Source: Escherichia coli
GTDB lineage: Bacteria; Pseudomonadota; Gammaproteobacteria; Enterobacterales; Enterobacteriaceae
Length of the DNA: 64,000 nucleotides
Reading direction: 5' to 3' (one strand)
NCBI RefSeq assembly: GCF_024502345.1
Contig: NZ_JALDNN010000001.1
The notes below the pieces were generated by a model, which made no database searches, was not told where the DNA came from, and saw only the letters and a program-made list of their open reading frames with translations. The position numbers and the translations under genes were made by a program. Below, piece after piece: positions 19,621-57,322 of this stretch (its first letter is position 1; each line of letters starts with the position of its first letter).

Positions 19621-21336
19621 ATGCAGGGCTTGCTCGGCACTACGCTAATCCTGCTGGCGGCTTGCAGCCTGGCGGCGATGGCGACGGCGGCGTTCAGAGT
19701 GCCCGCCTTGCTGGGGTATCTCTCTGTCGGCGTTGTACTGGGCCCCTCAGTCATCGGCGTGATCGCGCCGGGGGAGACGCTGAGCTTTCTGTCCGAGCTG
19801 GGCGTGGCGCTGCTGTTGTTCATGGTCGGACTGGAATTCTCCCTCGGAGACTTCTGGCTCGCCCGCAGGACGGTGCTGATGGCGGGCGCTCTGCAGATGA
19901 TCGCCGTGGCCCCGCCGCTGATCCTGCTATTGATGTGGCTGGGGCAGCCCGGCCAGAGCGCCGCGCTGCTCGGCACTGCGGCGGCCATGTCGTCCACGGC
20001 GCTGGTCAGCCGACAACTGGCCGACCAAGGCGAGCTCACCACCCGCCACGGACGCAGTGCCATCGCCGTGCTGGTCTTTCAGGACCTGGCCAGCGTGCCC
20101 CTGCTGGCCTTGCTGGCGATCTGGGCGCGCGGCGACTCGCCGAAGATCGAGCATGTGCTGCTCGAAGTATTCGGTGTGCTGCTGCTGTTCGCGGCAGCGG
20201 CCCTCGCCTCGCGCCGTCTGTTGCATGGCCTGCTGGGCTGGGTGGCGCGGCGGGGCCACGAGGAATCGTTCGTGCTCGTCTCCTTGTGCGTGGTGGTGGC
20301 CGCCGCCGCCGCTGCGCACGCGGTCGGCGTATCTGCCGCCCTGGGGGCCTTCCTCGCCGGGATGGTGCTGGGCGAGAGCGACTTCCGGCACCACATGGAA
20401 AGCCACCTCAGGCCGTTTCGCGATGTGTTGTCGGGCGTGTTCTTCGTGACCATCGGCCTGCAACTGGACGCAGCACAGATTCTTTCGGCACCGCTGGCGG
20501 TGCTGGCGTGGCTGGTGGTGCTGGTACCGGTCAAGATCCTGCTCAATACACTGGCCTTGCGGGCGACGCGCCTGTCCGCCCTCGATGCCTGGCGCACGGG
20601 CATAGCGTTGGGGCACGGCGGCGAGTTCGCCCTGCTGTTGTTGGGCACGGTCTTGCAGCAGCATCTGATCCCCGCGACCGTCGTCCAACCCATGCTGGTC
20701 GCGCTGGTGCTCAGCATGGCCCTGGCACCGCTACTGATCCGCCATCACGATGTACTTGCCCGGTTCTTGAGCCGCACCGGCGGCGTCATTCAGCCACCCC
20801 AGGCTGAAGAAGTCGAGATCGCCGCGCAGACGACGCGATATCGAGACCATGTCATCATTTGCGGCGCGGGCGAGCTTGGCCTGACAGTCAGCGAGATTCT
20901 TCGCCACGCCGGCGTGGCGCATCTGCTGCTGGAGGCGGACGCGCAGAAGGTCGAGGCCGCGCGTGCCGCCGGCGCGCCGGTGTTCCATGCCGATGCCAGT
21001 CGGCCCGATACCTTGCTGGCTGCCGGCTTGACGCATGCACACTTGGTGGTGCTGACGTTCGCCCATGCCCAGCAAGCGTTGCGCATCGCCCAGGCGATTG
21101 CCGAGCACCGTCCGGCGCTGACCTTGTGGGTGTCATGCAGAAGTACGACCGCGGCCGATGCATTTCGCGCCATGCCCAACGTGCGCGTGTATCAGCAATC
21201 CTTTGCCGCAGCTATTGGGCTGGCGGAACAGGTGATGTCGACGCTTGGCATGTCGACCGAGCTGATTGAAGGACACATCAGCGCAATGCGCCGCCGTCTC
21301 GACAGCAGCCGTTTTCCAGGGAGTTCATCGTCATGA
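19621..21336 (+). CDS. kefB: KefB-like monovalent cation:proton antiporter (CPA2 family) with C-terminal TrkA-N/KTN domain
   Basis: Multi-TM N-terminal domain; C-terminal VIICGAGELG Rossmann-type KTN motif. Confidence 0.85.
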   Translation: MQGLLGTTLILLAACSLAAMATAAFRVPALLGYLSVGVVLGPSVIGVIAPGETLSFLSELGVALLLFMVGLEFSLGDFWLARRTVLMAGALQMIAVAPPLILLLMWLGQPGQSAALLGTAAAMSSTALVSRQLADQGELTTRHGRSAIAVLVFQDLASVPLLALLAIWARGDSPKIEHVLLEVFGVLLLFAAAALASRRLLHGLLGWVARRGHEESFVLVSLCVVVAAAAAAHAVGVSAALGAFLAGMVLGESDFRHHMESHLRPFRDVLSGVFFVTIGLQLDAAQILSAPLAVLAWLVVLVPVKILLNTLALRATRLSALDAWRTGIALGHGGEFALLLLGTVLQQHLIPATVVQPMLVALVLSMALAPLLIRHHDVLARFLSRTGGVIQPPQAEEVEIAAQTTRYRDHVIICGAGELGLTVSEILRHAGVAHLLLEADAQKVEAARAAGAPVFHADASRPDTLLAAGLTHAHLVVLTFAHAQQALRIAQAIAEHRPALTLWVSCRSTTAADAFRAMPNVRVYQQSFAAAIGLAEQVMSTLGMSTELIEGHISAMRRRLDSSRFPGSSSS

Positions 21337-23949: not shown

Positions 23950-24173
23950 TGGAAAGTGGGTCATGGATCTGCACAGCGAAGCAGCCAAGCGACTTCAGCC
24001 TTGCGCCGAACTACGAGCCCTAGCTAGGGATGGTCTGAAGTAGCCCTGTATTTCCGGCTGACTTCAGCCACTGCTGATTTTGAAAGCGGTGAACCGATCA
24101 AAAACGATCGGATCACCCGCTCATTTCGGTGCTTTCAGCCGTCGCGAGCACCTTGCGACGGCCATTTTCCGCA

Positions 24174-24770
24174 TTACAGGCGCACCTCTCCTGCGCTTGC
24201 CAGCAAATGTCGGCGGGCCATCCATAGGTTCGACAGGGCAAACAGCGTCACCAGTTGTGCAGTGTTCCTCACCAGCCCTCGGAAACGTACCTTGGTGTAG
24301 CCGAACTGCCGCTTGATCACGCGAAACGGGGGCTCTACCTTCGCTCGCACTTGCGCCTTGGCCTTCTCGATCTTGCGCTTGGCTTTGTACAGGGCGCTGC
24401 GTTTATCGAGCATCTTGTAGGTGCTGCGGCGTGCTGCGACCTGCCAGATCACTTCTCGGTCGGCATGCTCGGAGCGCTTTTCGACGCCGGTGTAGCCGGC
24501 ATCGGCGCAGACGACGTTCTCGTCGCCGTGCAGCAGCTTGTCGACCTGGGTGACATCCGCCACGGTGGCTGCCGTGCCCACCACGCTGTGTACCAGCCCC
24601 GATTCATCATCAACGCCGATGTGCGCCTTCATGCCAAAGTAATACTGGTTCCCCTTCTTGGTCTGGTGCATTTTCGGGTCGCGCTTGCCGTCCTGGTTCT
24701 TGGATGAACTGGGCGCGTGGATCAGCGTGGCATCGACGATAGTCCATCTTGATAATATCGGGCCGCTCAA
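24174..24770 (-). pseudogene. IS5-family (DDE_Tnp_1) transposase, N-terminally truncated fragment
   Basis: ...HIGVDDESGLVHSVVGTAATVADVTQVDKLLHGDENVVCADAGYTGVEKR... parallels the IS5 InsH core; first ~130 codons absent. Confidence 0.75.
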
Positions 24771-24911
24771 CGCTCGGGTACCAGGAGGTGACGGACCCGT
24801 ATACCAAAGAAAAATACTTTGAGTACGCCCATGACGGCAAACTGATGGGGCAGCTACTGATACCCTCGAACCCTGACAATCAGGAATAAAACAACGACAA
24901 AGGAGACAAGA

Positions 24912-25379
24912 ATGACAATACTTTCACTAAGTCGGTTTATGCTGGCGGGTGTACTGCTCGCGAGCTTTAATGCCTCTGCTATCCCGGGGTTCTGGCAGCA
25001 GGGTTACGGTCAGGGCAATACGGAATACAGCGTGACCGAAGCCAGCGGAAAGACGTTTACCATCAACTGCACAGGGAACCCGGACCAGAATGGTTTCTAT
25101 CAGCATTCAGTCTTTCTTACCCTTGCCGATGACAAGATGGTCAGTTCGCACGATGACGACACTACTATCACCGTAGTGATGGATCACCAGCAGTACATTA
25201 TTCCGTCCAGCCTGGGCTGGCGTAACGGCGATAACGCCTGGTTTGACTTCATCAGCAATATCTCTGAGGCCGGGCAGTTCGACGTCTACGTCAATGACCA
25301 CAAAGCAGGGACCTTCACTGCGGACCGGAAGAACACTGAGAAAGTTCTGTCCACTCTCGGAGACTGCAGCAACGACTGA
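24912..25379 (+). CDS. Hypothetical secreted protein (signal peptide); position corresponds to ykfB of the K-12 CP4-6 prophage
   Basis: [23 protein letters not shown] signal-like N-terminus; 155 aa; symbol not assigned because only synteny and length support it. Confidence 0.6.
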
Positions 25380-25455
25380 TAGTAGTATCTTCCCCAGCAA
25401 ATCCACCCCGACAGCTAGCAGGCTGCCGGGGTTTTCTTTTATCAGGAGCCCGAAA

Positions 25456-25695
25456 ATGACCCAATCCGTGTTGCTGCCACCGGGGCCTTTCACCCGGAGA
25501 CAAGCGCAAGCGGTCACTACCACGTACAGCAATATCACACTCGAAGACGACCAGGGCAGTCACTTCCGTCTGGTGGTTCGTGATACTGAAGGCCGGATGG
25601 TCTGGCGGGCATGGAACTTTGAGCCGGATGCCGGTGAAGGTCTTAACCGCTATATCCGCACCTCAGGCATCCGTACAGACACGGCCACCCGCTGA
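25456..25695 (+). CDS. ykfF: DUF905-family small protein (YkfF/YfjW-like)
   Basis: [79 protein letters not shown]; AGGAG RBS. Confidence 0.65.
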
Positions 25696-25792
25696 TCGCG
25701 AAGCATTTACCCGCATTCACCTCCCCGAACACACTTTATATCCCCATACGCCAGCCATCGCCGCTGGCGTTTTTATTGACGGAGACATACCC

Positions 25793-26251
25793 ATGACAAC
25801 ACAGACGCAGCACGACCTCGCACCCGCTAACCAACCCGAATTTGAACTGACCGTCACGCCGGTCCCCGATGAACAGCGTATCGATTTCTGGCCACAGTAC
25901 TTTGGCGCTATCCCGCAGTGGCTACTCCTGGAGCCGCATATCTTCGCCTGGATGGACCGCTTCTGTGAGGGCTACAGCGGTGGTATCTGGTCGTTCTACA
26001 CCCTCAGCAATGGCGGCGCATTTATGTCCCCCGAGCCTGACAACGATGAGACATGGCGTCTGTTTAACTGCCTGAACGGTAACGATGCCCAAATGAGTGC
26101 AGAAGCAGCAGGTATTGCTGTCTGCCTGATTGCGTATAGCCACCATGCCTGCCGTACAGAATGTGACGCGATGACCGCACACTATTACCGCCTGCGGGAG
26201 TATGCCATGCAACATCCAGAGGCTCACGCCATTCTGCGTATTATCGACTGA
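25793..26251 (+). CDS. yafX: Antirestriction protein, KlcA/ArdB family (YafX/YfjX-like)
   Basis: 152 aa; ...IWSFYTLSNGGAFMSPEPDNDETWRLFNCLNGNDAQMSAEAAGIAVCLIAYSHH... typical of the family. Confidence 0.75.
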   Translation: MTTQTQHDLAPANQPEFELTVTPVPDEQRIDFWPQYFGAIPQWLLLEPHIFAWMDRFCEGYSGGIWSFYTLSNGGAFMSPEPDNDETWRLFNCLNGNDAQMSAEAAGIAVCLIAYSHHACRTECDAMTAHYYRLREYAMQHPEAHAILRIID

Positions 26252-26266
26252 CCGAAGGAGCAACAG

Positions 26267-26743
26267 ATGAAACAGCTTTCCTTTTTACCCGGCGAGATGA
26301 CGCCACAGGACCGGCGTCTCATTCAGCGGGCGCTCAGGGCTCTGGACCGCCACCTGCATGAGCCCGGCGTAGCCTTCACCTCTACCCACGCCGTACGTGA
26401 ATGGCTGCGACTGCATATGGCCGCGCTTGAGCGGGAAGAGTTCCGGGTGTTGTATCTGGACAACCAGAATCAGTTGATTGCCCATGAAACGCTCTTCACC
26501 GGCACGATTAACCGCACCGAGGTGCATCCCCGGGAGGTGGTCAAACGTGCTCTGCACTTCAACGCGGCGGCGGTGATACTCGCGCATAACCATCCTTCCG
26601 GCGAGACGACACCTAGCCAGGCCGACAAAACCCTCACGCAGCGACTGGTTCAGGTGCTTCAGCTGGTGGATATCCGTGTCCTTGACCATCTGATTGTCGG
26701 TGGCAGGCAAATCTATTCGTTCGCAGAACACGGTCTGCTTTGA
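26267..26743 (+). CDS. ykfG: RadC-like JAB-domain protein (YkfG/YeeS/YfjY family)
   Basis: HNHPSGETTPSQADKTLTQRL JAB/MPN-type motif. Confidence 0.75.
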   Translation: MKQLSFLPGEMTPQDRRLIQRALRALDRHLHEPGVAFTSTHAVREWLRLHMAALEREEFRVLYLDNQNQLIAHETLFTGTINRTEVHPREVVKRALHFNAAAVILAHNHPSGETTPSQADKTLTQRLVQVLQLVDIRVLDHLIVGGRQIYSFAEHGLL

Positions 26744-26751
26744 GGTATTAC

Positions 26752-26973
26752 ATGAAAATTATCAGTAAACGCAGGGCAATGACGATATACCGCCAGCATC
26801 CTGAGTCCCGAATCTTTCGCTACTGCACCGGCAAATACCAGTGGCACGGTAGCGTCTGTCATTACACCGGCAGGGACGTTCCGGATATCGCCGGAGTCCT
26901 CGCGGTATACGCCGAACGCCGCCAGGACCGCAATGGGCCCTATACCTGCCTGATGAGCATCACCCTGAACTGA
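26752..26973 (+). CDS. ykfH: DUF987 protein (YkfH/YeeT family)
   Basis: MKIISKRRAMTIYRQHPESRIFRYCTGKYQWHGSVCHYTGRDVPDIAGVLAVYAERRQDRNGPYTCLMSITLN. Confidence 0.75.
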   Translation: MKIISKRRAMTIYRQHPESRIFRYCTGKYQWHGSVCHYTGRDVPDIAGVLAVYAERRQDRNGPYTCLMSITLN

Positions 26974-26991
26974 CAATAGTGGAGAACTGTA

Positions 26992-27671
<680 letters not shown>

Positions 27672-28052
27672 ACATTGCGTACAACCTTCCCGATTTACAT
27701 TTCTGAACTTCCTCCCTTGTTTACCTATTGCGTAATGCGCCTGCTACTACCCGGCAGGCGCGTTATCTTTTTACGGACAAACAATCATGCAACCAGAAGT
27801 TGAAGTATTAACCGATCATAATGAGCTAATTTGTTCGAGCTTTATTGAACACATTGCCAACACATTAAATTTAGGAGTGGTGTACAACTAAACCTGCAGC
27901 CAAGGATGTATAGTGAGCGAAGCCCTATCAGGCCTTTTTGGTCAGTAGATAAGATTGATCTTCGTTGATAGAATTTACTTACACCAGCTGTTACATTAAG
28001 ATAATTTTTTGGTGGGAGAATGATAAGATCTTACGTAACAATTTGATTTTAA

Positions 28053-28068
28053 TGGTGCGATAATAGGA
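28053..28068 (+). repeat. Degenerate direct repeat of the thrW 3' end; putative distal att site of the thrW island
   Basis: TGGTGCGATAATAGGA versus TGGTGCCGATAATAGGA at 58981-58997 (one-base deletion), same orientation; lies ~380 bp from the ykfI-like gene end. Confidence 0.55.
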
Positions 28069-28249
28069 ACATAACACACCACATATAACCATTGATAAAC
28101 ATACATATTTTCTTGTTTCATCTTTATAAATGCCCCCTTTTGTGCCCCCGCCTTGGTTTTCATACGACTCGATGAGCCTTTCATCGAGTCGTTAATCTCA
28201 CCAATTTCTTCACAGACCGTGCAAACCTTCTCAGCTCTTTAAGCCCCCC

Positions 28250-28618
28250 TCACTGACGCGATCGGCTAAGAACAATATTACTTACTTCCCGATAAGAACA
28301 ACTGTTCATTAATCCGCATGCTTTCCTGGCATGAAGGATATCTGTCACGGTCAGATATGGCGCTTGTTCCTGTGAGGAAAATCCACTGCGATCGATACGG
28401 ACTAACTCATACTTCTCCACCAGAAAGTTGATAGCATTAGCCAGGGTGATACCGGCATCGATATGTTCCTGTATGACGGTTTCATCACAGAAAGGTGTAT
28501 CGTTTAGCGTCAGGCCATAATGCTGTTCCAGCAGACGACTAAGTAACATTTGCCAGATAGTCACGGGCGATAGGCATGGCTTCGCCGCCCGCATATTTTT
28601 TGCAGGTTGAAATTTCAT
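28250..28618 (-). CDS. Type IV toxin, CbtA/YpjF family (second, diverged copy)
   Basis: ...[67 protein letters not shown]... Confidence 0.8.
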
Positions 28619-28638
28619 TTTTTCTCTCGTGAAAGTAA

Positions 28639-28956
28639 TTAACGTTGAGTGGGATAAACGGCGATGTATACGTAGCCGCAGCTGCCAAGGGTATCGGCTT
28701 CGCAGGTAAAACCGTCGTGGTACAGGGTGACGCTGTGGGCATGACGAGGATTCAGTTCACCGGAGGTCAGCATCAATTCCATCTGGCTGATAAAGTGCGG
28801 GAAAGTTTCATCCAGTTTCCGGCATTCGGCGTCACTGAATTGACCGGTGTTGCTGGCCCGGTCAGCCAGATAATGCAGCCGGTTCCCTTCTTGCACAAGG
28901 CGGGCTCCCAGGCGCGGCGTGATATCCCGCTGCAGGCCCCATGTGATGTTACTCAT
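28639..28956 (-). CDS. Type IV antitoxin, CbeA/YfjZ family (second copy)
   Basis: [42 protein letters not shown]...; paralog of 26992-27309. Confidence 0.8.
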
Positions 28957-28975
28957 TGATAAACCTCTTTTATTT

Positions 28976-29197
28976 TCAATTCAGGGTGATGCTCATTAGA
29001 CAGGCATAAGGCCCGTTGCGATCCTGGCGGCGTTCGGCGTATATCGCCAGCACACCGGGAATGTCAGGAACCACCTTACCGGTGTAATGACAGACACTGC
29101 CATGCCACTGGTATCTGCCAGTGCAGAATCGAAAAATGCGGGAGGCCGGATGCTGACGGTAAATCGTCATTGCCCGGCGTTTACTGATAATTTTCAT
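28976..29197 (-). CDS. DUF987 protein (YeeT family, second copy)
   Basis: MKIISKRRAMTIYRQHPASRIFRFCTGRYQWHGSVCHYTGKVVPDIPGVLAIYAERRQ... Confidence 0.75.
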   Translation of the reverse strand: MKIISKRRAMTIYRQHPASRIFRFCTGRYQWHGSVCHYTGKVVPDIPGVLAIYAERRQDRNGPYACLMSITLN

Positions 29198-29205
29198 GTC
29201 ATACC

Positions 29206-29688
29206 TCAAAGCAAACCGTGTTCAGCGAACGACAATATCTGCGTGCCACCGACGATGAGATGGTCAGGCACACGGATATCAACGAGCTGAAGCGCCTGCA
29301 CCAGACGCTGCGTGACAGCTTTATCAGCCTGACTGGGTGTGGTGTCACCGGAAGGGTGGTTATGCGCAAATAACACTGCTGCCGCATTGAAATACAGGGC
29401 CCGCTTGACCACCTCACGGGGATGAACCTCGGTGCTGCTGATGGAACCGGCAAACAGGATTTCGTGGGTAATCAACTGGTTCTGCTGGTTCAGGTACAGC
29501 ACCATAAACTCTTCGCGCTCCAGTCCCGCCATTTTCAGTTTCAGCCAGTCACGGGCAGCCTGAGTGGAGGTGAATGCCACACCTGTTTCTCGCAGGTGTC
29601 GGTCAAGCAGCGTTAAAGCGCGTTTTACCGTGCGTTGTGCGGCCAATGGAAGTGCCGTAGCCTGTGGGATAAGTGACTGTTCCATCAT
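29206..29688 (-). CDS. RadC-like JAB-domain protein (second copy)
   Basis: HNHPSGDTTPSQADKAVTQRL motif; paralog of 26267-26743. Confidence 0.75.
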   Translation of the reverse strand: MMEQSLIPQATALPLAAQRTVKRALTLLDRHLRETGVAFTSTQAARDWLKLKMAGLEREEFMVLYLNQQNQLITHEILFAGSISSTEVHPREVVKRALYFNAAAVLFAHNHPSGDTTPSQADKAVTQRLVQALQLVDIRVPDHLIVGGTQILSFAEHGLL

Positions 29689-29696
29689 AAGTATCC

Positions 29697-30587
29697 TTAA
29701 TCAATAATGCGCAGAATGGCGCTGGATTCAGGGTGCTGCAGAACGTAATCCCGCAGGCGGTAATAGTGTTCAGTCATGGCATTGCATTCGGTGCGACAGG
29801 TGTGATGGCTGTATTCAATCAGGCAGACAGTGATACCTGCGGCTTCCGCGCTCATTTGCGCACTATTGCCGTTCATGCCGTTGAACAGGTGCCATTTATC
29901 GTCACCGTCAGCATCAGGGGCCATAAACGCTCCGCCATTGCTGAGCGTATAAAAGGACCAGATACCGAAAGTCATCTCCGACTGGCTGCCGAAGCGAACT
30001 CCGGCGCGGATATGCTGTGCGCTACCGTCACCAAAGTTCACGTAGCCTCCATTGTCATGACCGTTATTCAGGGACAGCCCCTGCCAGATATACTGAAGCT
30101 GCGGCTCCAGTATCAGGCCATTGGTCACACTGAACGGCAGACCCGTTTCCAGCGAACCCAGCCAGCCCCAGCCGTGGGTAGCGAAACTGTCTGCATCAGA
30201 CGTCGCTTTCAGGTTATGACGGGAGCCCTGAGCCACCACATCTGTCCACAGGCCGCTGGCGGCATGCACGGCGGTCAGATAACCGCCCAGGCTGTACACA
30301 TCATCACGGGCACTCCCGGCACGGGAGCGGTCATCGTCTTTTATATCAACAGAAGAATGTCCCGCTGCACCATACACACCGGCTTTCAGCGAAGAGTTGC
30401 TCAGCAAGTCGCCGCCCAGTTGTACAAAGCCGTAGCTGCCGCTGCTTTCCGGTATCGCACCCTGCGCAATTCCGCCGTTATTTTCATGCCCCATATGACC
30501 ACCCTGGATGCGCCCCCAGACTCCGCTGCCACCTTTGACCGCGCTGCGCTGGTTGTAGCTACCTGCCAGTGCGCGGTCATAGTCCAT
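29697..30587 (-). pseudogene. Chimeric ORF: autotransporter beta-barrel-like fragment (Ag43/Flu-like) fused in frame to the C-terminal ~87 aa of a KlcA-family antirestriction protein
   Basis: N-terminal ~200 aa with beta-barrel-like alternating aromatics (YGFVQLGGD, GGYLTAVHAASGLW) ending ...GSQSEMTFG, then IWSFYTLSNGGAFMAPDADGDD... matching the KlcA paralog from its residue ~66. Confidence 0.6.
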
Positions 30588-30646
30588 GCTCTGCGCAAAC
30601 AGCGAAGCATAAAGAGCAACTTCAGCACGATAGCCAGCTTCGCTGG

Positions 30647-31012
30647 TCAGATACCCACAGCTTCACCCGCCAGACAGGGCGCGTCGTTGCAGTTCAGCAG
30701 CAGGCTGACCAGTCGACGGTCCAGCCCCGGAAACAGATCGGCTACACCTGTACGATGAGCGAAGGTCAGCACATCCAGCTCGGCCTGCGCACCACTCACG
30801 CCCGTCCGCAGGCGGTAACAACCGTTGCTACATTCAAGATCCAGATACATCAGCCGTTCGCGAAAATCGCGGTACAGAGTACGAGCAGATACACCAAACT
30901 CTGCTGTCAGCCTGCGCATATTCAGCGTTTCACCTGCAACGAGGCGACTGATAATCAGCGACAGCCTGATCGCCAGCCTGTCGTGGCGGCGCTCTGTCTG
31001 TGTCATTATCAT
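30647..31012 (-). pseudogene. HTH transcriptional regulator fragment (N-terminal domain of a YfjR-like regulator), C-terminally truncated
   Basis: 121 aa with [26 protein letters not shown], similar to the N-terminus of the WYL regulator at 37105. Confidence 0.55.
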
Positions 31013-31232
31013 TTCTCCATACGAGTTAACTGACTGAAAGGGTTATGATTCTAAAGAAGGGGTCTGACAGGGTATGTCCGGGGCAATAACTATTTTTCGA
31101 TGGACAGGAAGCCACTGCTCACTGGGTAAGCCGGGGTTTTTGTTCAATTAATCAGCAATACAAGAAGAGGTGAATTGACAGGGCATGTCATTCTTTAACG
31201 AGGCATTAACTTTTCAGATGCAGAATCTGAAT

Positions 31233-32060
31233 TTAAACAGACTGAAACTGTGACAACATCGTTTCCGCCATCACCCACAGCGCACGGTTGAGTTTTACGT
31301 CCCCGTCAATGCCACGCACCGCACGGGTATGCGTTCGCCCGCCTTTAGCATTACGTCCACTAAGCCCGCCCTTAATCAGGTTTTCCTGTACACGCTGATA
31401 AGTGGTCCACAGATCATTGCTCTCATCCTGCCAGCGGCGTGGGGAGAGTATCTGCGATTCATTAACAGGCTGGTGGTCCTCACCAAAGCGATACGTAAGC
31501 GCTGCTTTAGCAAGTGCCTGCTGCGCAGGTGGCGGTAGCATCAGAGACTGCATGGCATCGCGTTTCTCTTCCACCCGGTCAAAAATCCCAAGCACTTCAT
31601 AAGCCCCTTCAATCACCTGACTCACCACATCACCTTTGTGTGGTACCCGCACCTCACCAAACGACTCACCGCAGACAAGCCCGTTCTGACACACCGCACG
31701 AAATAATCCCGGCAGCATTTGATACGAACTGGTGCCATCATGAGAGTTAAGCAGAATGATTTCCGGCACCTGTTTACCTGTAATTTGCCCCTCCCGACGC
31801 AGGCGAAGCATGTGCTTGGTGTGTTCCCGACGCCCCGGGTCACGCACGCGGGTCTGACAGGCAAAGAATGGCTGAAAGCCTTCGCGCTGCAGGTTGTCCA
31901 GCAGGGATATGGTTGGAATATAGGTATAACGTTCGCTGCGGGATTTGTGTTTGTCCTGACTGAAAACGCTGGGCACCACACGAAACAGCTCTTCACGGGT
32001 TAACGGACGGTCACGACGGATAAGATTTGCTGCGCCAAAGCGCGAAGCCAGACGGGTCAT
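31233..32060 (-). CDS. DUF932-family protein (YfjQ/YkfB-like, CP4-type island core gene)
   Basis: Start placed at MTRLASRFGAANLIRRDRPLTREELFRVVP; recognised as YfjQ-like. Confidence 0.7.
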   Translation of the reverse strand: MTRLASRFGAANLIRRDRPLTREELFRVVPSVFSQDKHKSRSERYTYIPTISLLDNLQREGFQPFFACQTRVRDPGRREHTKHMLRLRREGQITGKQVPEIILLNSHDGTSSYQMLPGLFRAVCQNGLVCGESFGEVRVPHKGDVVSQVIEGAYEVLGIFDRVEEKRDAMQSLMLPPPAQQALAKAALTYRFGEDHQPVNESQILSPRRWQDESNDLWTTYQRVQENLIKGGLSGRNAKGGRTHTRAVRGIDGDVKLNRALWVMAETMLSQFQSV

Positions 32061-32149
32061 AAGCAGACTCCTAATAACGGAAAACAATAATAGAAAGCCC
32101 TGCCGCACAGGCGACAGGGCTCATGGAATAAAAGGTTGGAATTAAATGC

Positions 32150-33013
32150 TCAGAAGAAGAAATCCCAGACAGCACGGGCCACTGATACCACGGTGGTGCG
32201 CATGGCCTGAATGATGGTCCGCACCGGAGTCGGTATCAGTGGGAAAGTACTCACCGTATCCAGCACCGCACCGATAGTTTCACCAAAATCAACGCGCGCT
32301 TTTTCCTGGACTACTGTTGTGCGAAAGGGAGGCTGCAGTTGCGCGACCACCGGGCTGCTGGCCTCGCGCGGCAGGCAGCGAATCATTCTCTCCGCCATTG
32401 TTCGTAATCCCCATTTAGCCCGGACCGATACGGCACATACAGGATGAACAGGCTGGAACAATTCATGCAGCAGGCAAATTTTACGGCTAATGTTTTGCTT
32501 CTGCTCTATGGATAAGTAACCGCCACCGCAAGTGGGTTCGGTCTTGTCCGACTGACTAATAACAAACAGCACCTTATGCCGGTATGACTCACCAATTATC
32601 TGATGATAAAAATGCTCATCCACCGCCAGCGCCCGATCATCGGCCTTGATCAGCCACAGCACCAGGTCGAGCCGGGGAAGCTGATCACGGTACAGCCCGG
32701 CATACTCGCTATCGCGTGCACTACTTTCCCCTACGCCGGGCAGGTCCACCAACGTCATAACGCGCTCGCCAACCTGAAGGCGAAAGCGCAGAGGTTCCCG
32801 GGTACAGGCCACCACATCGCTGACAGGCGATACCTCACCAGCAAACAGGGCATTGCAAAGGCTACTTTTGCCTGCTCCCGTTTTACCCATAATACCTATG
32901 ACCGGTTCATACTCAGTTATCTGTCTTATTTGTTGCAATAAATGCTCAGTAACCCATTCAGGTAATCCAGATACCGGTTTTAGCAAAGAAGAATAACCGT
33001 ATTTATTTTTCAT
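32150..33013 (-). CDS. P-loop GTPase, YfjP/YeeP/YkfA family
   Basis: GIMGKTGAGKSSLCNALF Walker A/G1, DLPG G3-like motif. Confidence 0.8.
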   Translation of the reverse strand: MKNKYGYSSLLKPVSGLPEWVTEHLLQQIRQITEYEPVIGIMGKTGAGKSSLCNALFAGEVSPVSDVVACTREPLRFRLQVGERVMTLVDLPGVGESSARDSEYAGLYRDQLPRLDLVLWLIKADDRALAVDEHFYHQIIGESYRHKVLFVISQSDKTEPTCGGGYLSIEQKQNISRKICLLHELFQPVHPVCAVSVRAKWGLRTMAERMIRCLPREASSPVVAQLQPPFRTTVVQEKARVDFGETIGAVLDTVSTFPLIPTPVRTIIQAMRTTVVSVARAVWDFFF

Positions 33014-33103
33014 AACACCACCCTCTTATTGATAATAAAAAGGCAGCTTACATAACTGCCTTTTTTAATCCTTCATAGGGATGATATATATCTAAAAAAA
33101 CAT

Positions 33104-34018
33104 TCAGCGTGGATTAAATTTTTGTTTCCATGCCAGATGAATAGCAAATTCAATGACTCTGGCATTTGAGATCCCTTCTCTAACAGATATATCACGAAGC
33201 TTATCATGAGTCTCCTGAGAAATGATCACGTTAAGGGCTTTATTTTTATCTGCGCGTTTCTTCTCTCGACTTTTCTGTGTGCTCAATGCACTTTTAAATT
33301 TTCTTATGAATAGTTCTTTTTCTGCTTCAGTCCTAAAAACATCCTCACGCCAGATAAAATATGACGCATAACAATATGCGATTTTTTCTTCTATTCCTTC
33401 AGCATGCCGATATTTTTGCAAGGTAACATTATTTTCCTGCAAATAATTCAGCAACCAGTCAATGGTCACCCCTGCTTTCCCATTGACATCAGAAAATAAA
33501 TTTTTCTTTGTGATTAATTCATTCCACGCATTATGTAATTTTAGGATGTATTGTCTGGTGTTTCCTTCAGAAATGCTTTTTACAACTTTATCTTTGATAA
33601 GCCGCACCCGAAGATTATGGACTGGTGGAATATCGAATCCTAAAGTGAATGGTTCATTTAACAGCGAATTTTCTGCCTGAACAGGGAATGTGTCTGTATA
33701 GGGTGCACAACTTAGGGTTACCTGTTCTTGATCTGTTTTACAAAGTAACCAGTAACTAGCCCTGGAATCTGTGGTGAACCATTCAAGCTCATCTTCACAT
33801 GGAATCTCTTTTTTAGCCTCAACCCGGGTGTTATTGATAAAAATATCTACTTCTCTTTCGGAACCTTTATTCCCACTCAATAATAAATTGCGCACTCTCT
33901 TTTCATAGTTTGCAAGATTTGCTTCGGACGACTCAGGAGGAATATCAATCTCGAATTTCTTTAATTTAAAGTACAAAAATAAAATGAGATTCCTTTCATC
34001 ATAAAATGAAACCACCAC
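33104..34018 (-). CDS. Hypothetical protein with C-terminal ribbon-helix-helix-like segment; unknown function
   Basis: 304-codon low-GC ORF, GTG start after AGGGGG; no internal Met; C-terminal NVIISQETHDKLRDISVREGISNARVIEFAIHLAW resembles a CopG/Arc-type RHH. Confidence 0.5.
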   Translation of the reverse strand: MVVSFYDERNLILFLYFKLKKFEIDIPPESSEANLANYEKRVRNLLLSGNKGSEREVDIFINNTRVEAKKEIPCEDELEWFTTDSRASYWLLCKTDQEQVTLSCAPYTDTFPVQAENSLLNEPFTLGFDIPPVHNLRVRLIKDKVVKSISEGNTRQYILKLHNAWNELITKKNLFSDVNGKAGVTIDWLLNYLQENNVTLQKYRHAEGIEEKIAYCYASYFIWREDVFRTEAEKELFIRKFKSALSTQKSREKKRADKNKALNVIISQETHDKLRDISVREGISNARVIEFAIHLAWKQKFNPR

Positions 34019-34431: not shown

Positions 34432-35626
<1,195 letters not shown>

Positions 35627-45900: not shown

Positions 45901-48900
45901 CGCATCATACTGCCAGCGGAATAACTCTCTTCGTCAATACGGCTCTCGCTGTACGCTTACCCATCTAGAGAGGTTTCAGGTGATTATCGATGTCAGAAGA
46001 CTGAATGATTCAGTCGTTTACTTTGAGATAGATCAGAGGTTTTTCACTACCTGTGTTCATCACATGGCTACGAATAGTAGAATCCAAGCATAAATTAACG
46101 CTTAGAAAAGTTGAGCTCATGAGATTCCACCCTGAAGGGCCTTCCATACCCGATATCCTCTTAGAACGCTGTGATACAGGTCGAGTTGTATTTCTCTGTG
46201 GCGCTGGGGTTTCATTACCTTCAGGGATGCCAAGCTTTGTAGAGCTTACCCAGCATGTAATTGAATACTTTGACCCACCACACGATTCAGAAATCATGGC
46301 AGCATTTCGCCCATGGCTTCACGACCAATCTTCAGCTAATGTCCCTCTCGACCAAATTTTCAACCTCCTACATCTGGAATATGGCAAGGATGAGGTGAAT
46401 GCTTTGGTATCAAAGCGTCTGGGGACTGCAAGAACTGATATAGAGATTGGACGTGAGCATGCCCTGATTAAAAGAATTTCCTCAAATCAGAGTGGTGTCC
46501 CACAGATTGTCACAACGAACTTTGACCGACTGTTCGAGGATAACCAAGCGCAAGATAATCTAACTCGATATGTGCCGCCAGCTTTCCCAAATCTGAATTT
46601 CGGTTCGACAATTGAGGGAATAACATATCTTCACGGCCGCCTGGTCGACGAAAATGCTGTAAACCATCCTTATGTGCTGAGCAGTGCAGACTTTGGAAGA
46701 GCATATCTTTCAGAAGGATGGGCGACCAATTTTATTAAGCTTCTTCTGGAACGATACATCGTTGTTTTGGTCGGTTATCAGGCAGAAGACCCACCAGTTA
46801 AATACCTCCTTCAGGGTCTCAATCATGATGGCCAGTATGATCGTTCCAGACTTTATGCATTTGATCGCGGCCTTGCCGAGGATATCGAAGCCAAATGGCG
46901 TGACAGAGGAGTTACAGCCATAGCCTATTCCGATCATCCAGCTCTTTGGAAGACTTTGGAAGCATGGGCTGAGCGAGTAGATGATCCACGTCGATGGCGA
47001 GCTTCTATTATCGCTAAAAGCCAGCAAGATCCGAAAGTTCTAGCACCGTATGAACGTGGTCAACTTGCCCATATACTTCGCACTACACAAGGTGCGAAAT
47101 TGTTCTCTGAAGCTGTTCCTCTTCCCCATCCAGAGTGGCTTTGTGTGATGGATGCAAATATTCGGTCAGCCAAACAGAAGAAAAGATACTACGAACTTGA
47201 TGACAATGATGCAGAGACCTTCGATCCACAAGAAGCTTATGGGCTTGATGACGATCTGCAAGATATCGCTGATGATGAACGTAAACGTGGAGTGAGTAAC
47301 GATAATCTCCTTGAATGGCGCGACGAAGATGATAACCCGTCAGATTACCATCGCTTGGCTGGATGTTTGGAGACAATGCCGAAACGATTGAGCCATCTCA
47401 TGGTCTGGTTCTGCAAATCTCTTGATAGCCCCGTGATGGCTTGGTGGGCTATCCGAAAAATCAGTATTCATCCTCTACTACTACAAAATATTGAACGCAA
47501 TATTGAGCATTCAACATCAATCCACAAACGCGCTCGTCAACTGTGGGGCTTAATTCTTGAACATCATAAAGATCCCCGCAATCGTCGTTATGACGTCGAT
47601 TGGTACGACTTAAAAGCTCGAATTACAAAACAAGGCTGGACAGCTGGTGTCTTACGAGAATTTCGTAGGGTAATGACACCCCGATTGGAAAAGAAGTTGC
47701 CGTATGGATTGGGTGAAGTCAGACCGCCAAGCGGCTCCTGGGAGGAAATTCAGTTCAGCGAATTTGGCCAATTTGAAGTTGTGTTCACCGAAAGACATGA
47801 TGACGATTTAGACGTACCTGACAATGTATTACTACAAGTATTTAATGCCTTAGAAGCGCAAATAATAACTGCCTCCGGAATGTTAGAGGATATTGATACG
47901 CACTACTTTCCAAGCCCAAGTTGTTATCCAGAACGTGCGGTTGAAGGAGAAGAACATTTCGCGAAAGGTGCGGAGGTATTAACTTGGTTTGTCCAACTTT
48001 TAGACCGAGTTGTTATGAAGTGGCCAGAATTGGCTAAGGCATACGTAACAACTTGGCCAGTTAAGGAGCCATTTTTCTTCCGAAAGCTTAGACTTTATGC
48101 ATTCAGTAAAAAAGGCGTCTTTGAGGCTGACCGTGTTGCCGAAGAGCTTTTGTCTTTGGATCAAAGTGGATTTTGGGACACAAATATTACCCGCGAACTT
48201 CTTTTTCTGCTCACTGATCGTTGGGAAGAATTCTCGCAAGAAAATCAGAATCGAATTATAGAGCATATATTAACCGGCCCGAACCATTTACTTTATTTGT
48301 CTGAGGAAGACATTCCAAAAGAAAGAGAGATATTAGCAGCTAGATACGCTCGTTATCTCGAACTAAACGGCTGTAAAGTAACCACTATTCATCGTGACCA
48401 ACTAACTGCGATGATTAAAAGAATTCCTGACTGGAATGATGGCTGGGCTACATCTGTTGTCATCAATTGGGGTTCACGGACAGGTTGGGTTCGTACAGAC
48501 GAAAAGCCAGATATAATCTTAGATCTTCCAGCAAACGAAATAATCCCAAAAGTAAAAGAGATACTTAAACGAGAGGATGATAGCTTTACTAGTAGGCAAC
48601 CCTTTGTCGGATTGATAAAAGAAAATCCGCGTAAAGCTTTGTCTGCACTCGCTATTGCAGGGAGAGGCGGTGATTACCCTAAGGAATTTTGGTCGCCAAT
48701 GATAAGTGAGTTACCTATAGATCTTAAACCAAGGGTGAGACGAGTATTCCTGAACCGAATTGTGCGATTGCCAGTTACAGCTTTGGTCGAGTTACGACAT
48801 ACATTAAGTAACTGGCTTGAACAAAATTTAGCTGCGACTCTTGAATTTGATGAGGATCTCGGGTGGGCAGTTTACGATCATGTCATAGCAGGCATACTGA

Positions 48901-49333
48901 GTGGTGGCGCCAGTGCAATACGGAGTAGTTTCGGAGAAGTTATCCGGAATGGAGAAGTTGTAATACAGTCTCGCCGCACGTTCAGTCATGCAATCAATGG
49001 TCCTGTCGGTAAATGTACTCAAGCGCTTTTTCAAGCAATGCCAAGTGAAGAGAAAAAAGCTGGTTCGCTTATTCCTTACTCTATTAAGTCTCGTATTGAA
49101 CATCTTTTTACTGCACCAGGAGAAGGAGCGGACCACGCTATAGCTATAACGTCTCGCAATCTAAATTGGCTAATGTTTGTTGATCCTGCATGGGTAAAGG
49201 AATGGCTTATACCCCTTTTGGATTTAAAACATCCTGCAGCAGAACCAGTATGGAATGGTTATCTTCAGTGCAATGCTATGCCTTCAATTGCAGTAGCTGA
49301 ACTTATTAAACCAGCTTTTCTTAACCTTATCCC

Positions 49334-50390
49334 GGCTTTGTTGAATAAATCAGATTTCGGGTAAGTCTCCCCCGTAGCGGGTTGTGTTTTCAGGCAATAC
49401 GCACGCTTTCAGGCATACCTGCTTTCGTCATTTTGTTCAGCGCTCGTACCAGGGCCATAGCCTCTGCAACCTGACCATCGTAGTCACGCAGTGTCAGTGA
49501 ACCCCCGAACAGCTGTTTTACCCGGTACATCGCCGTTTCCGCTATCGAGCGACGGTTGTAATCTGTTGTCCATTTCCACCGCGCATTACTCCCGGTCATT
49601 CGCTGATTAGCCACTGCACGGTTACGGTCTGCATATTCACCGGGCCAGTAACCCGCACCTTTTCGGGGAGGGATAAGCGCGCTGATTTTCTTACGCCGCA
49701 GTTCATCGTGACATAGCCGGGTATCGTAAGCGCCATCGGCGGCGGCTGACCTGATTTTCCGGTGGGTTTGCCGGATTAACCCGGGGAAGGCCTCTGAGTC
49801 CGTAACGTTGTTCAGCGACAGGTCAGCGCAGATGATTTCATGTGTTTTACTGTCAACGGCGAGATGCAGCTTACGCCAGATACGGCGGCGTTCCTGGCCA
49901 TGCTTTTTGACTTTCCACTCGCCTTCACCGAAGACCTTCAGCCCGGTGGAATCAATTACCAGGTGTGCGATTTCACCCCGGGTGGGCGTTTTGAAACTGA
50001 CATTAACCGACTTTGCCCGCCTGCTGACACAGCTGTAATCCGGGCAGCGTAGCGGAACGTTCATCAGAGAAAAAATGGAATCAATAAAGCCCTGCGCAGC
50101 GCGCAGGGTCAGCCTGAATACGCGTTTAATGACCAGCACAGTCGTGATGGCAAGGTCAGAATAGCGCTGAGGTCTGCCTCGTGAAGAAGGTGTTGCTGAC
50201 TCATACCAGGCCTGAATAGCTTCATCATCCAGCCAGAAAGTTATGGAGCCACGGTTGATGAGGGCTTTATTGTAGGTGGGCCAGTTGGTGATTTTGAACT
50301 TTTGCTTTGCCACGGAACGGTCTGCGTTGTCGGGAAGATACGTGATCTGATCCTTCAACTCAGCAAAAGTTCGATTTATTCAACAAAGCC
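49334..50390 (-). mobile_element. IS903-group element, copy 2, inverted relative to copy 1, with 9-bp TSD CCTTATCCC
   Basis: Same terminal repeats as copy 1; CCTTATCCC at 49325-49333 and 50391-50399. Confidence 0.92.
49390..50358 (-). CDS. IS903-type transposase (copy 2)
   Basis: 322-codon ORF with translation identical to 38097-39065. Confidence 0.92.
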   Translation of the reverse strand: MKDQITYLPDNADRSVAKQKFKITNWPTYNKALINRGSITFWLDDEAIQAWYESATPSSRGRPQRYSDLAITTVLVIKRVFRLTLRAAQGFIDSIFSLMNVPLRCPDYSCVSRRAKSVNVSFKTPTRGEIAHLVIDSTGLKVFGEGEWKVKKHGQERRRIWRKLHLAVDSKTHEIICADLSLNNVTDSEAFPGLIRQTHRKIRSAAADGAYDTRLCHDELRRKKISALIPPRKGAGYWPGEYADRNRAVANQRMTGSNARWKWTTDYNRRSIAETAMYRVKQLFGGSLTLRDYDGQVAEAMALVRALNKMTKAGMPESVRIA

Positions 50391-51152
50391 CCTTATCCCT
50401 TGGATCGAATCTCTTTCTTGGGAAAAAGATTATTCAGTTCGAGCTTCGCAATGGCTTGGCTTAATGAGAATGTTTCACCCTGATGAGCCCTCCAGTCCTT
50501 CCAGGAATGAAATGCGCTCCATATTACGAGCATTATCTGACGAGGCTCGAAATCGTTTTATTTCCTGGTTAGGATTGGTCGGGCAGAAAAACGAGAGTGG
50601 CTGGGTTAAGTATGTGATCCCATTAATCAGAGAGGACTGGCCCAAAGAACGCCAATATAGAACCACGAGCTCTGTAAAAGCATGGATTGGTTTACTTGAC
50701 GATACTGGCGATAAGTTTCCGGAGGTTTACGATTCAGTAAAAACATACTTAGTACCAATCGAGACAATTGATCATTTGTTCTACAGATTCACTCGGGAGC
50801 TCGGTGGTAAAGGAGCAATTGCAGCTATTTTTCCAGAAACCACGCTTGATTTAATGGACAAAATAACACCACTGATATTCACGCGTACATCAGGAGAGCT
50901 GCAGAAGATTCTTGAGCTAATTGAAGATACAGATACAAGTCTGATCAAGGATTCTCGGTACTTACGGCTTATTGCACTGGTTGAGAAAAATTAGCATTTA
51001 TGGTTTTTTACCGTTGTTGATTACTCAGCAACACTTTTCGACATGCCGTAGCGCTTATCGCCTGTTCTTGACTAAGATGAGAAGCAGGCGTTAAAGTTTG
51101 GTTAAAGGAGAACCTCTAACCATTCCTTCTGGAAGAAATAATCTTTGGAGTA

Positions 51153-51875
51153 TTATTGAAATTGCTCAAATATACCATGCAACCCAATAAATTTTATTTT
51201 TAGTGCAGGATCATGCCTTAGAACAGTCTCAAGTGAGTTCCGCTCATAAATTATTGATTGTGCTTGTATTGAGCCGTTCCATGAAGGCAAAAGCAGTAAA
51301 GCAGATGTTTCCAAATCAATACCCCACCAATCGTTAACATAGCAATTTAAAAAATCAACAAGAGCCTTAATCGCAATAAAAGCATCTTTTTCGGTATATG
51401 TTTCAGGATCGAGGGATATACCTGATATATTACTTTTAGCTTGCTCGGAATTAATATTAGACTGGTGTTGATAAGCAATTTTTCCTTCACCCGGTTTAGT
51501 TTCTATTGTATCAGTGAAAATTTTAATCTTAGGATGCACCAATGCATTTCGTTGTGCTATTAATTCTTTTATTATTTGTGTTTGAGTGGTTCCACGAGGT
51601 AAAGACATGTCTTTATGCCATTGAAGAGTATAGTCAAATTTATCAAGTGAAGAGAACCTGTCAATTTGATCTTTTAACTTTTGCGTTATTTCTATAGAAG
51701 ATAAAAATGAGTTAGCTGCAGCCTCAATAGCGTAGTTAATTGAAAGTACACTTGATTTGGCAAGTGTTTTTTTGATGTGTGATTTTTTTGTTGCAGCTGA
51801 TAATTCATAAAGAGTTATTGCATCAGAAAAAAGCTCAAAAAAGCTGTTCTTGGTTATTTCAACTTTTCTTTTCAC
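51153..51875 (-). CDS. P3: hypothetical ~240-aa protein with possible HEPN-type R-x4-H motif
   Basis: ORF 51153..51881; ELIAQRNALVHP contains R-x4-H; start uncertain (TTG at 51881 or GTG at 51875). Confidence 0.55.
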   Translation of the reverse strand: MKRKVEITKNSFFELFSDAITLYELSAATKKSHIKKTLAKSSVLSINYAIEAAANSFLSSIEITQKLKDQIDRFSSLDKFDYTLQWHKDMSLPRGTTQTQIIKELIAQRNALVHPKIKIFTDTIETKPGEGKIAYQHQSNINSEQAKSNISGISLDPETYTEKDAFIAIKALVDFLNCYVNDWWGIDLETSALLLLPSWNGSIQAQSIIYERNSLETVLRHDPALKIKFIGLHGIFEQFQ

Positions 51876-51965
51876 ACGCAACCCTCTGCATAAAAAAATA
51901 AAATCATATAGACAGAATACAATTTCCTATAATCTTTATATTCTACTAATTGTGGATATAAATGG

Positions 51966-55956: not shown

Positions 55957-57322
55957 TTAGATAACACCCTTATAAGGAACATGTACTCATCTAAAATGCT
56001 GTTACCGGATTATTATACCTAAAACAATGAATGCTGTGTATTATGAAATGTGATATAAGTCAATTAGTTACATATAAAAACCAACTCACATCCAAAAGGA
56101 TAGTATTTCGAGGTTTGTAGCATCATTAAATGTGAACTTATTTATCGCCCCCTCAAGTTAACTAATAAATAAGTTATAATTTACATATACTTCTGGAATT
56201 TAGAAACCTTATATCTAATAGTTGAGTAAGTTAATAATCAACATGAGTGTGATTCATAAAAAAAATAATTATTATTTTCAGCCCCTCCATTATGGAGGAG
56301 CAATAATAGTATAGTTTTCCTGTATTCCTAACGATCCAGTTAGGCTTAGAGAAATCTAATTATGAAGCACTCCTGAGAGCAACCCTTCCAACTTTATCAA
56401 TATAATCCGCATACCACTGCATCATCTCTCTCCTGCCTTCCAAATACAGCGCATGGTTGTACGTCCCGCGAATCGCATTCTTATCGACATGCGCAAGCTG
56501 GGTTTCAATCCATGCGGTATTGAACCCTTCCTCATGCAAAATCGTACTCATCGTGTGGCGGAAACCATGCCCCGTTACCTTCCCCGTGTACCCAATCCGC
56601 TTAAACACCTGATTAATACTCGCTTCGCTCATTGTTTTGCGGGGATCATTCCTCCCAGGAAACACCAGAGGATATTGCCCAGACATCACTTTGAGCTGCT
56701 GTACGATCTCCAGCGCTTGGGTAGAGAGGGGCACCAGGTGAGGCCGTTTCATCTTCATGCGCTCTGCAGGTATTTCCCACACCGCTTTTTCAAGATCAAA
56801 CTCACTCCAGAAAGCACCTCGAAGCTCACCGGTGCGAACCCCCGTAAGGATCAGCAAACGTGCGGCAAGAACAACCAGCGGGCTGCCTGTATAGCCAGAA
56901 AGAGCTTTAAAGAAATCTGGTAACTCCTCAACGGTAAGGAAGGGATAATGCTTCGATTCATGCCCTGACATCGCGCTGGTTAGATCCGCAGCCGGATTGT
57001 ATTCCGCACGACCGGTAACTATGGCGTAGCGAAAGACTTCGCTGCAGCGCTGGCGAACTTTCTTGGCCTTCTCTGTCGCACCACGGCTTTCCATTCGACG
57101 CAGTACATTCAACAGAACAAGAGGCTTAATTTCATTGACTGGCTGCTGACCGATATAGGGAAAAATATCTTTATTTAAAGCTTCGATAATGTCCGATGCA
57201 TACCCTTCTGACCATCTGCTCACCTTCGTACCGTGCCACTCAAGCGCCACAGACTGGAACGTATTATGATCTTACCCAGCAATAGTGGACACGCGGCTAA
57301 GTGAGTAAACTCTCAGTCAGAG

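Follow-up and report, generated by a model that had tools for sequence, protein, structure and literature searches.

Serial island integration at thrW as the probable origin of two convergent type IV toxin-antitoxin cassettes in Escherichia coli

A 64,000-nucleotide (nt) stretch of an Escherichia coli genome (contig NZ_JALDNN010000001.1 of assembly GCF_024502345.1; hereafter the window) carries two cassettes of the CbtA/CbeA type IV toxin-antitoxin (TA) family that meet tail to tail. Cassette A (25793-27671) lies on the plus strand at the end of a CP4-6-type island, termed island A, and cassette B (28250-29966) lies on the minus strand at the end of a second island, termed island B. The tail-to-tail pair is very probably a by-product of serial integration at the thrW hotspot of E. 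coli. The two cassettes would be convergent because a canonical island entered thrW beside a CP4-6-type island whose TA end faces the tRNA gene, and integration at thrW together with the attachment (att) scars explains the arrangement.

The inverted repeat formed by the two cassettes is real and far above chance. A gapped alignment of 25982-27629 (plus strand) with 29966-28319 (minus strand) spans 1657 columns at 78.0% nucleotide identity with 18 gap columns, and the longest perfectly matching run between the arms is 28 bp. A repeat search resolves the homology into three collinear inverted arm pairs of 639, 637 and 266 nt at 77-81% identity, while the other inverted pairs in the same 12 kb measure only 20-27 nt, which is the chance level. 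Both strands carry the Pfam families Antirestrict, RadC, DUF987, CbeA_antitoxin and CbtA_toxin (E 1e-36 to 1e-68), and protein identity between the cassettes is 76-89% over all five families. By family, it is 77.5% for the antirestriction protein (C-terminal 89 amino acids (aa) only), 76.9% for the RadC protein, about 89% for DUF987, 83.8% for the antitoxin, and 76.0% for the toxin across its first 104 aa. In both cassettes the antitoxin and toxin genes share a strand, the antitoxin gene coming first and the toxin gene following it directly after a gap of 20 nt (27309 to 27330 in A; 28639 to 28618 in B).

A first-pass annotation, made from the letters of the window alone, had proposed five protein families in mirror order, clear divergence between the copies, and a junction of two island ends in place of a recent inverted duplication. 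The mirror order is confirmed by Pfam and by open reading frames (ORFs) at the expected coordinates, except that the fifth gene of the minus strand is not an intact gene and forms part of an Ag43-antirestriction fusion. The span assigned to the pair, 24912-30587, also took in ykfB and ykfF (24912-25695), which have no counterpart on the minus strand. The two CbeA-like peptides quoted as examples of divergence are found in the ORFs at 26992 (+) and 28956 (-), and the nucleotide and protein identities given above agree with diverged copies. A recent inverted duplication, which near-identical arms would have indicated, is not what the alignment contains.

The window is the thrW region of the E. 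coli chromosome, as shown by its sole tRNA gene, the tRNA-Thr(CGU) gene thrW (ARAGORN), followed by proA-proB-phoE-crl. Of 5426 complete E. coli genomes, 5289 match the flank at 58900-64000 (95-99.3%). Island B (28069-58978; 30.9 kb) is enclosed by two direct copies of the thrW 3′ end that agree at 18 of 19 nt, and the left copy sits between the two toxin genes. The match between E. coli C and the window runs from 24779 to 28068 (blastn) and stops inside the tRNA 3′ end, at the point where E. coli C has an intact tRNA. At the thrW end, island B encodes a P4-type tyrosine integrase that is now split by a 1256 bp insertion sequence (IS) of the IS3 family (57268-58523) into a C-terminal part (56360-57250) and an N-terminal part (58491-58856). 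Since the integrase is interrupted, excision of island B is predicted to have been lost.

Each island is also found without the other. In E. coli C and K-12, cassette A matches that of the window at 99-100%, a 382 bp spacer separates ykfI from an intact thrW, and island B is absent; the A-side half of the junction occurs at 99% identity or more in about 447 complete genomes. In PSJ-29, island B stands alone at thrW (99.7-100% identity) without CP4-6, its TA end abutting yagP′/paoD, in the order thrW, intact integrase, cargo, GTPase, DUF932, WYL, Ag43, antirestriction, RadC, DUF987, antitoxin, toxin, yagP′/paoD. These single-island states, together with the thrW-derived repeat between the toxin genes, bear out the earlier proposal of an island-end junction. 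They also bear on an old inverted duplication, in which one cassette was copied within a single island and the copies then diverged in place. The collinearity of the arms in mirror order across 1.65 kb, with equal gene order and equal antitoxin-toxin spacing, is what such an event would leave. However, each arm exists elsewhere at 99% or more without the other (A in E. coli C and K-12; B in PSJ-29), by which this origin is already refuted; cassette B is closer to CP4-57 than to cassette A (RadC 92% versus 72%; antitoxin 88% versus 84%), and an att repeat of thrW origin separates the arms. Duplication in place is thus scarcely credible.

Nor is it at all likely that the ends were joined by an inversion of the chromosome or by homologous exchange between islands residing at two different loci. 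Several paralogous CP4-type islands per genome could act as inverted substrates for such an event (matching places: median 2, up to 9), but island B lies between two direct copies of the thrW 3′ end, and thrW on its integrase side is intact and followed by proA-proB-phoE in the usual order. Moreover, the same island occupies thrW in PSJ-29, and the A side retains the exact ykfI-thrW spacer up to the att core.

The full junction is present in three of the 5426 complete genomes. Z226-5 and Z226-6, both complete, contain both islands undeleted with the same junction, and 27250-28700 is contiguous in them at 99.9% identity. In CAVP773 the neighbour of island A is another thrW island, one with nickel/cobalt cargo, and the two again meet tail to tail. 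An assembly artefact fusing two paralogous island ends might be suspected here, given that paralogous repeats are a classic source of misassembly and that three unusual deletions set the window apart from its nearest relatives. Such an artefact is nonetheless most improbable: the junction is contiguous in the two Z226 genomes and has an analogue in the unrelated CAVP773, the join falls at the att core and not within the repeated segments, and the arms, at 78% identity with identical runs of at most 28 bp, are too diverged to mislead an assembler. An exact search recovered the end of island B, comprising the att core and about 160 bp, from Enterobacter sp. Cy-643 and Citrobacter freundii M-21. 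In both strains a single TA cassette comes next, and the examined DNA contains no second, convergent one.

Under serial integration, the older event would have established a CP4-6-type island A, with the heat-resistance locus, whose terminal operon yafX-ykfG-ykfH-yafW-ykfI points toward thrW. Island B would later have entered the thrW 3′ end by means of its own P4-type tyrosine integrase. Its layout, with the integrase beside the tRNA gene and the TA end far from it, would have placed its TA end against that of island A, with a duplicate of the thrW 3′ end remaining between the toxin genes. In this strain both islands have since decayed by deletions, IS insertions and splitting of the integrase; the antitoxin and toxin ORFs of both cassettes are still full length. 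The thrW gene, one of the most frequently used sites of this kind in E. coli, has been named as an integration hotspot (PMC7545054), and the locus resembles other cases of island accretion at tRNA hotspots in its successive integration into one tRNA gene, its duplicated att cores and its presence/absence polymorphism among strains. It differs in the orientation of the resident CP4-6-type island: the TA end faces the tRNA gene, which makes the pair convergent and not, as is usual, head to tail.

Several points weigh against this account. The order of A before B is read from the nesting of the att copies and carries no date. CP4-6-type islands have their TA end, and not an integrase, beside thrW, which is an unusual orientation. 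The activity of either toxin at this locus is a prediction from sequence. In addition, a 655 bp deletion (D2) cut the 5′ end of the first gene of cassette B and the intergenic region before it, so that cassette B may be silent or transcribed by read-through only; the operon promoter of CP4-57 lies in the region equivalent to this deletion (PMC10846083).

Table 1. Positions of the two cassettes, their islands and the surrounding features in the window.
Feature	Position	Strand	Basis and remarks
IS5-family transposase fragment	24174..24770	-	ORF; annotated "IS5 family transposase, incomplete" in Z226-5 and E. coli C
Deletion D1, 4386 bp	24779..24781		Removes GTPase, DUF932, yfjR, ypjK and most of yafY (island A); microhomology TAC
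ykfB	24912..25379	+	CP4-6 gene, no Pfam family; annotated ykfB at matching loci
ykfF, DUF905	25456..25695	+	PF06006, E 4e-43
yafX, antirestriction (KlcA/ArdB-type), cassette A	25793..26251	+	PF03230, E 2e-39; annotated yafX at matching loci
Inverted arm pairs	26991-27629/28319-28957; 26342-26978/28971-29607; 25982-26247/29701-29966		Repeat search
ykfG, RadC-like JAB protein, cassette A	26267..26743	+	PF04002, E 5e-48; 99% to K-12 YkfG
ykfH, DUF987, cassette A	26752..26973	+	PF06174, E 4e-40
yafW, CbeA-family type IV antitoxin, cassette A	26992..27309	+	PF06154, E 2e-49; 99% to K-12 YafW
ykfI, CbtA-family toxin, cassette A	27330..27671	+	PF06755, E 2e-68 (1-112 of 112); 99% to K-12 YkfI
CP4-6 thrW-proximal spacer	27672..28050		Same as ykfI-thrW spacer of E. 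coli C and K-12; blastn 99.4-99.9% up to 28068
Terminator-like hairpin downstream of ykfI	27732..27766	+	Consensus scan only; regional counts equal shuffled background
Distal att repeat of island B, AATGGTGC-GATAATAGGA	28051..28068		Copy of thrW 3′ end, one base missing
Hairpin, perfect 12 bp stem and 5 nt loop, ACGACTCGATGA-GCCTT-TCATCGAGTCGT	28164..28192		In last 180 bp of island B; sequence inspection
CbtA-family toxin, cassette B, 122 aa	28250..28618	-	PF06755, E 1e-56 (1-111 of 112)
CbeA-family antitoxin, cassette B	28639..28956	-	PF06154, E 1e-52; 88% to YfjZ
DUF987, cassette B	28976..29197	-	PF06174, E 1e-37
RadC-like JAB protein, cassette B	29206..29688	-	PF04002, E 1e-44; 92% to K-12 YfjY/LfgB
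Ag43 beta-domain fragment fused in frame to antirestriction domain	29697..30587	-	PF03797 and PF03230 on one ORF
Deletion D2, 655 bp	29963-29966		Removes 5′ end of B antirestriction gene, intergenic region and Ag43 3′ end; microhomology TACC
WYL/YfjR-like regulator, C-terminally truncated, island B	30647..31012	-	Z226-5 homologue 687 bp, annotated WYL; no Pfam match left
Deletion D3, 2234 bp	30651-30655		Removes Ag43 5′ part and WYL 3′ end; microhomology ATACC
DUF932 protein, island B	31233..32060	-	PF06067, E 1e-53; annotation
YeeP/YkfA-type GTPase, island B	32150..33013	-	Pfam MMR_HSR1; annotation
Five IS insertions in island B relative to PSJ-29	34432-35626, 38065-39121, 39488-40849, 49334-50390, 57268-58523		
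P4-type tyrosine integrase, island B	56360..58856	-	Phage_int_M and Phage_integrase (Pfam); intact 1197 bp gene in PSJ-29
Proximal att repeat, AATGGTGCCGATAATAGGA	58979..58997		Overlaps thrW 3′ end
thrW, tRNA-Thr(CGU), then proA, proB, phoE, crl	58981..59056	-	ARAGORN; annotation in relatives

By sequence similarity, cassette A is identified as the module yafX-ykfG-ykfH-yafW-ykfI of K-12 CP4-6, that is, YkfI/YafW. Its toxin, antitoxin and RadC proteins are 99% identical to those of K-12, ykfB and ykfF lie upstream, and the two loci have equal spacers, of 20 nt between the antitoxin and toxin genes and of 382 bp on the thrW side. The window copy differs in being separated from thrW by island B, and in lacking the block from the GTPase gene to yafY upstream, where it has the heat-resistance locus, as in E. 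coli C. In K-12 CP4-6, compared over 2872-37206 of the K-12 locus, the TA end lies by thrW and intF at the far end, which is the reverse of island B and CP4-57. An orphan CbeA-family antitoxin, yagB, is also found inside K-12 CP4-6 and suggests that CP4-6 is itself a composite of more than one island.

Cassette B is nearest, by protein identity, to the CP4-57 module yfjX(lfgA)-yfjY(lfgB)-ypjJ-yfjZ-ypjF, and not to CbtA/CbeA proper (57-65%). It has the same gene order and 20 nt spacer as this module, with RadC 92% and antitoxin 88% identical, and it too stands at the integrase-distal end of a tRNA-integrated island. Toxin B differs more: it is 71% identical to YpjF and equally to YkfI, 57% identical to CbtA, and at 122 aa against 109 aa for YpjF it carries a CbtA-like C-terminal tail. 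Further differences from CP4-57 are that island B is at thrW and not at ssrA, that Ag43 precedes the module, as in CP4-44, and that the window copy has lost its promoter region and retains its first gene only as a truncated, fused remnant. In a sequence search of the PDB, antitoxin B matches YfjZ (2EA9/2JN7, E about 1e-60; 2EA9: 9e-61) and YeeU (2H28, E 3e-42), and toxin B gave no match.

CbtA/CbeA (YeeV/YeeU) of CP4-44 is the founding type IV TA system. Both window cassettes belong to the same Pfam families as this pair and keep F65, and undeleted island B has Ag43 upstream of its module, as CP4-44 has Flu/Ag43. The window cassettes differ from it in protein identity (57-65%), in the N-terminal extension of CbeA, in the spacer (88 nt in CP4-44 versus 20 nt), and in missing yeeR and yeeW.

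The first gene of cassette B now forms part of an ORF of 296 aa, of which aa 23-213 are derived from Ag43 and aa 208-296 (29697-29966) from the antirestriction protein, the latter covering a nearly complete Pfam domain (6-92 of 92). This ORF could pass for a novel two-domain protein. Comparison with Z226-5 and PSJ-29 identifies it as the product of the 655 bp deletion and not as a new two-domain protein.

At the far end of cassette B, the perfect hairpin at 28164-28192 is not a canonical terminator, since it has no T-run, and may be a recombination arm site; the surrounding stretch 28049-28208 is 92% conserved at the Enterobacter island end. A promoter and terminator consensus scan of 24700-31300 returned counts at the shuffled background, with one plausible hairpin, after ykfI. 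An Rfam scan of 24000-34000 (E<=1) found no RNA family.

Each cassette is predicted, from family membership, to encode a CbtA/CbeA-type type IV TA pair. Both toxins contain the motif ...(V/I)NFLVEKY... with F at position 65, a residue required for interaction with FtsZ in CbtA, YkfI and YpjF (PMC5624674). Toxins of the CbtA family bind and inhibit FtsZ and MreB, and CbeA stabilises the filaments without binding the toxin (PMC5624674); the growth block through FtsZ and MreB, and rescue without toxin binding, have been described for the K-12 paralogues only (PMC5371832, PMC5624674). The 20 nt spacing of ykfI/yafW and ypjF/yfjZ (PMC5371832) is the same as that of both window cassettes.

Coexistence of two toxins with their antitoxins had been taken by the first-pass annotation to raise the question of cross-neutralisation. 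For paralogues of similar divergence, this question is already answered experimentally: YafW, YfjZ and CbeA each neutralise YkfI, YpjF and CbtA (Wen 2017, PMC5371832). The two window antitoxins share 84% identity, and their identity to the YafW and YfjZ proteins of that study is 84-99%. By analogy, each of the two would be expected to protect against both toxins, because the antitoxin acts on the cytoskeletal targets and not on the toxin.

Recombination between the arms had been raised as well. RecA homology requirements and mismatch-repair barriers are the basis for expecting it to be rare, and at 78% identity with identical runs of at most 28 bp, it should be rare or inefficient here. The three junction-bearing genomes, all in the same orientation, include no inversion isomer, which is weak negative evidence. 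Gene conversion between the inverted copies was considered and rejected, since the window contains no identical tract longer than 28 bp. In CAVP773, cassette A is 100% identical to the window through yafX-ykfG, but identity drops to 91-96% in a mosaic patch that spans its antitoxin and toxin genes (CAVP773 locus 19744-20300). The neighbouring cassette B of CAVP773 is ruled out as donor, being only 81-91% identical to the patch, which shows what appears to be allelic exchange somewhere in this TA family.

It is unlikely that the convergent, cross-protecting cassettes interact as a unit, through loss of addiction, recombination between the arms, or both. If they did, mutual antitoxin cover would remove the addiction that guards each island and permit decay on both sides; the three deletions stop short of the antitoxin and toxin genes, and the integrase is split. 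The 1.65 kb homeologous arms would also occasionally recombine or convert, flipping the 0.7-2 kb centre and making chimeric toxin and antitoxin alleles.

Decay of the two islands was called by comparison with Z226-5 and PSJ-29, to which the window is 99.8-100% identical elsewhere; for deletion D1 the reference genomes were Z226-5 and E. coli C. Each of the deletions D1, D2 and D3 has TACC at its junction in the window, and the 9-mer CAGATACCA is common to two of the left breakpoints. A rough estimate puts the probability of one 3-mer recurring at three junctions near 2e-4. The shared junctions may stem from a single complex template-switching event or from a break with site preference. D1-D3 are present in no complete E. 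coli genome, and an exact search of GTDB representative genomes did not find the D3 junction. Relative to PSJ-29, a 240 bp deletion is also seen in an arsC/arsB remnant (45648-45654), with ATA microhomology and the left site GGATAC. The five IS insertions in island B comprise an IS5-like element, two 1057 bp IS903-like elements with 9 bp target duplications, a 1362 bp element, and the IS3-family element that splits the integrase; they suggest recent IS activity in the strain.

The cargo of island B at 40702-55956 looks like a defence island. It includes PDC-M09 A/B, with A truncated by an IS; a Dsr1-like SIR2 protein that an IS903-like element has shortened to 1103 aa, its PSJ-29 counterpart being about 1291 aa long; an Olokun-like OloA/OloB pair of 857 and 504 aa; and an 840 aa protein without a Pfam family. 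On the other side of the locus, window 1-24000 (guanine-plus-cytosine content 58-67%) is filled by a heat-resistance locus. It precedes the CP4-6-type remnant of island A, an order shared with E. coli C, and an IS5-family fragment separates the two. The genes of the heat-resistance locus encode ClpK, FtsH, sHSP20-GI, YfdX, KefB-GI, PsiE-GI, HtpX and a DegP-like protease, and 1-24000 is covered to 80% or more in 77 complete E. coli genomes.

The arrangement is ordinary and already known: all components belong to known, annotated families, and nothing in it is novel. It forms part of a natural accretion series at thrW, in which A alone, B alone, A plus B, and A plus B decayed are all represented. 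Its value lies in annotation. Cassette A is to be read as YkfI/YafW of CP4-6, orthologous to the experimentally studied K-12 system, cassette B as a YpjF/YfjZ-like pair that ends an island of defence genes, and the 296 aa ORF as a deletion fusion. Otherwise of minor importance, the locus makes clear why paralogous modules of this TA type can come to be convergent.

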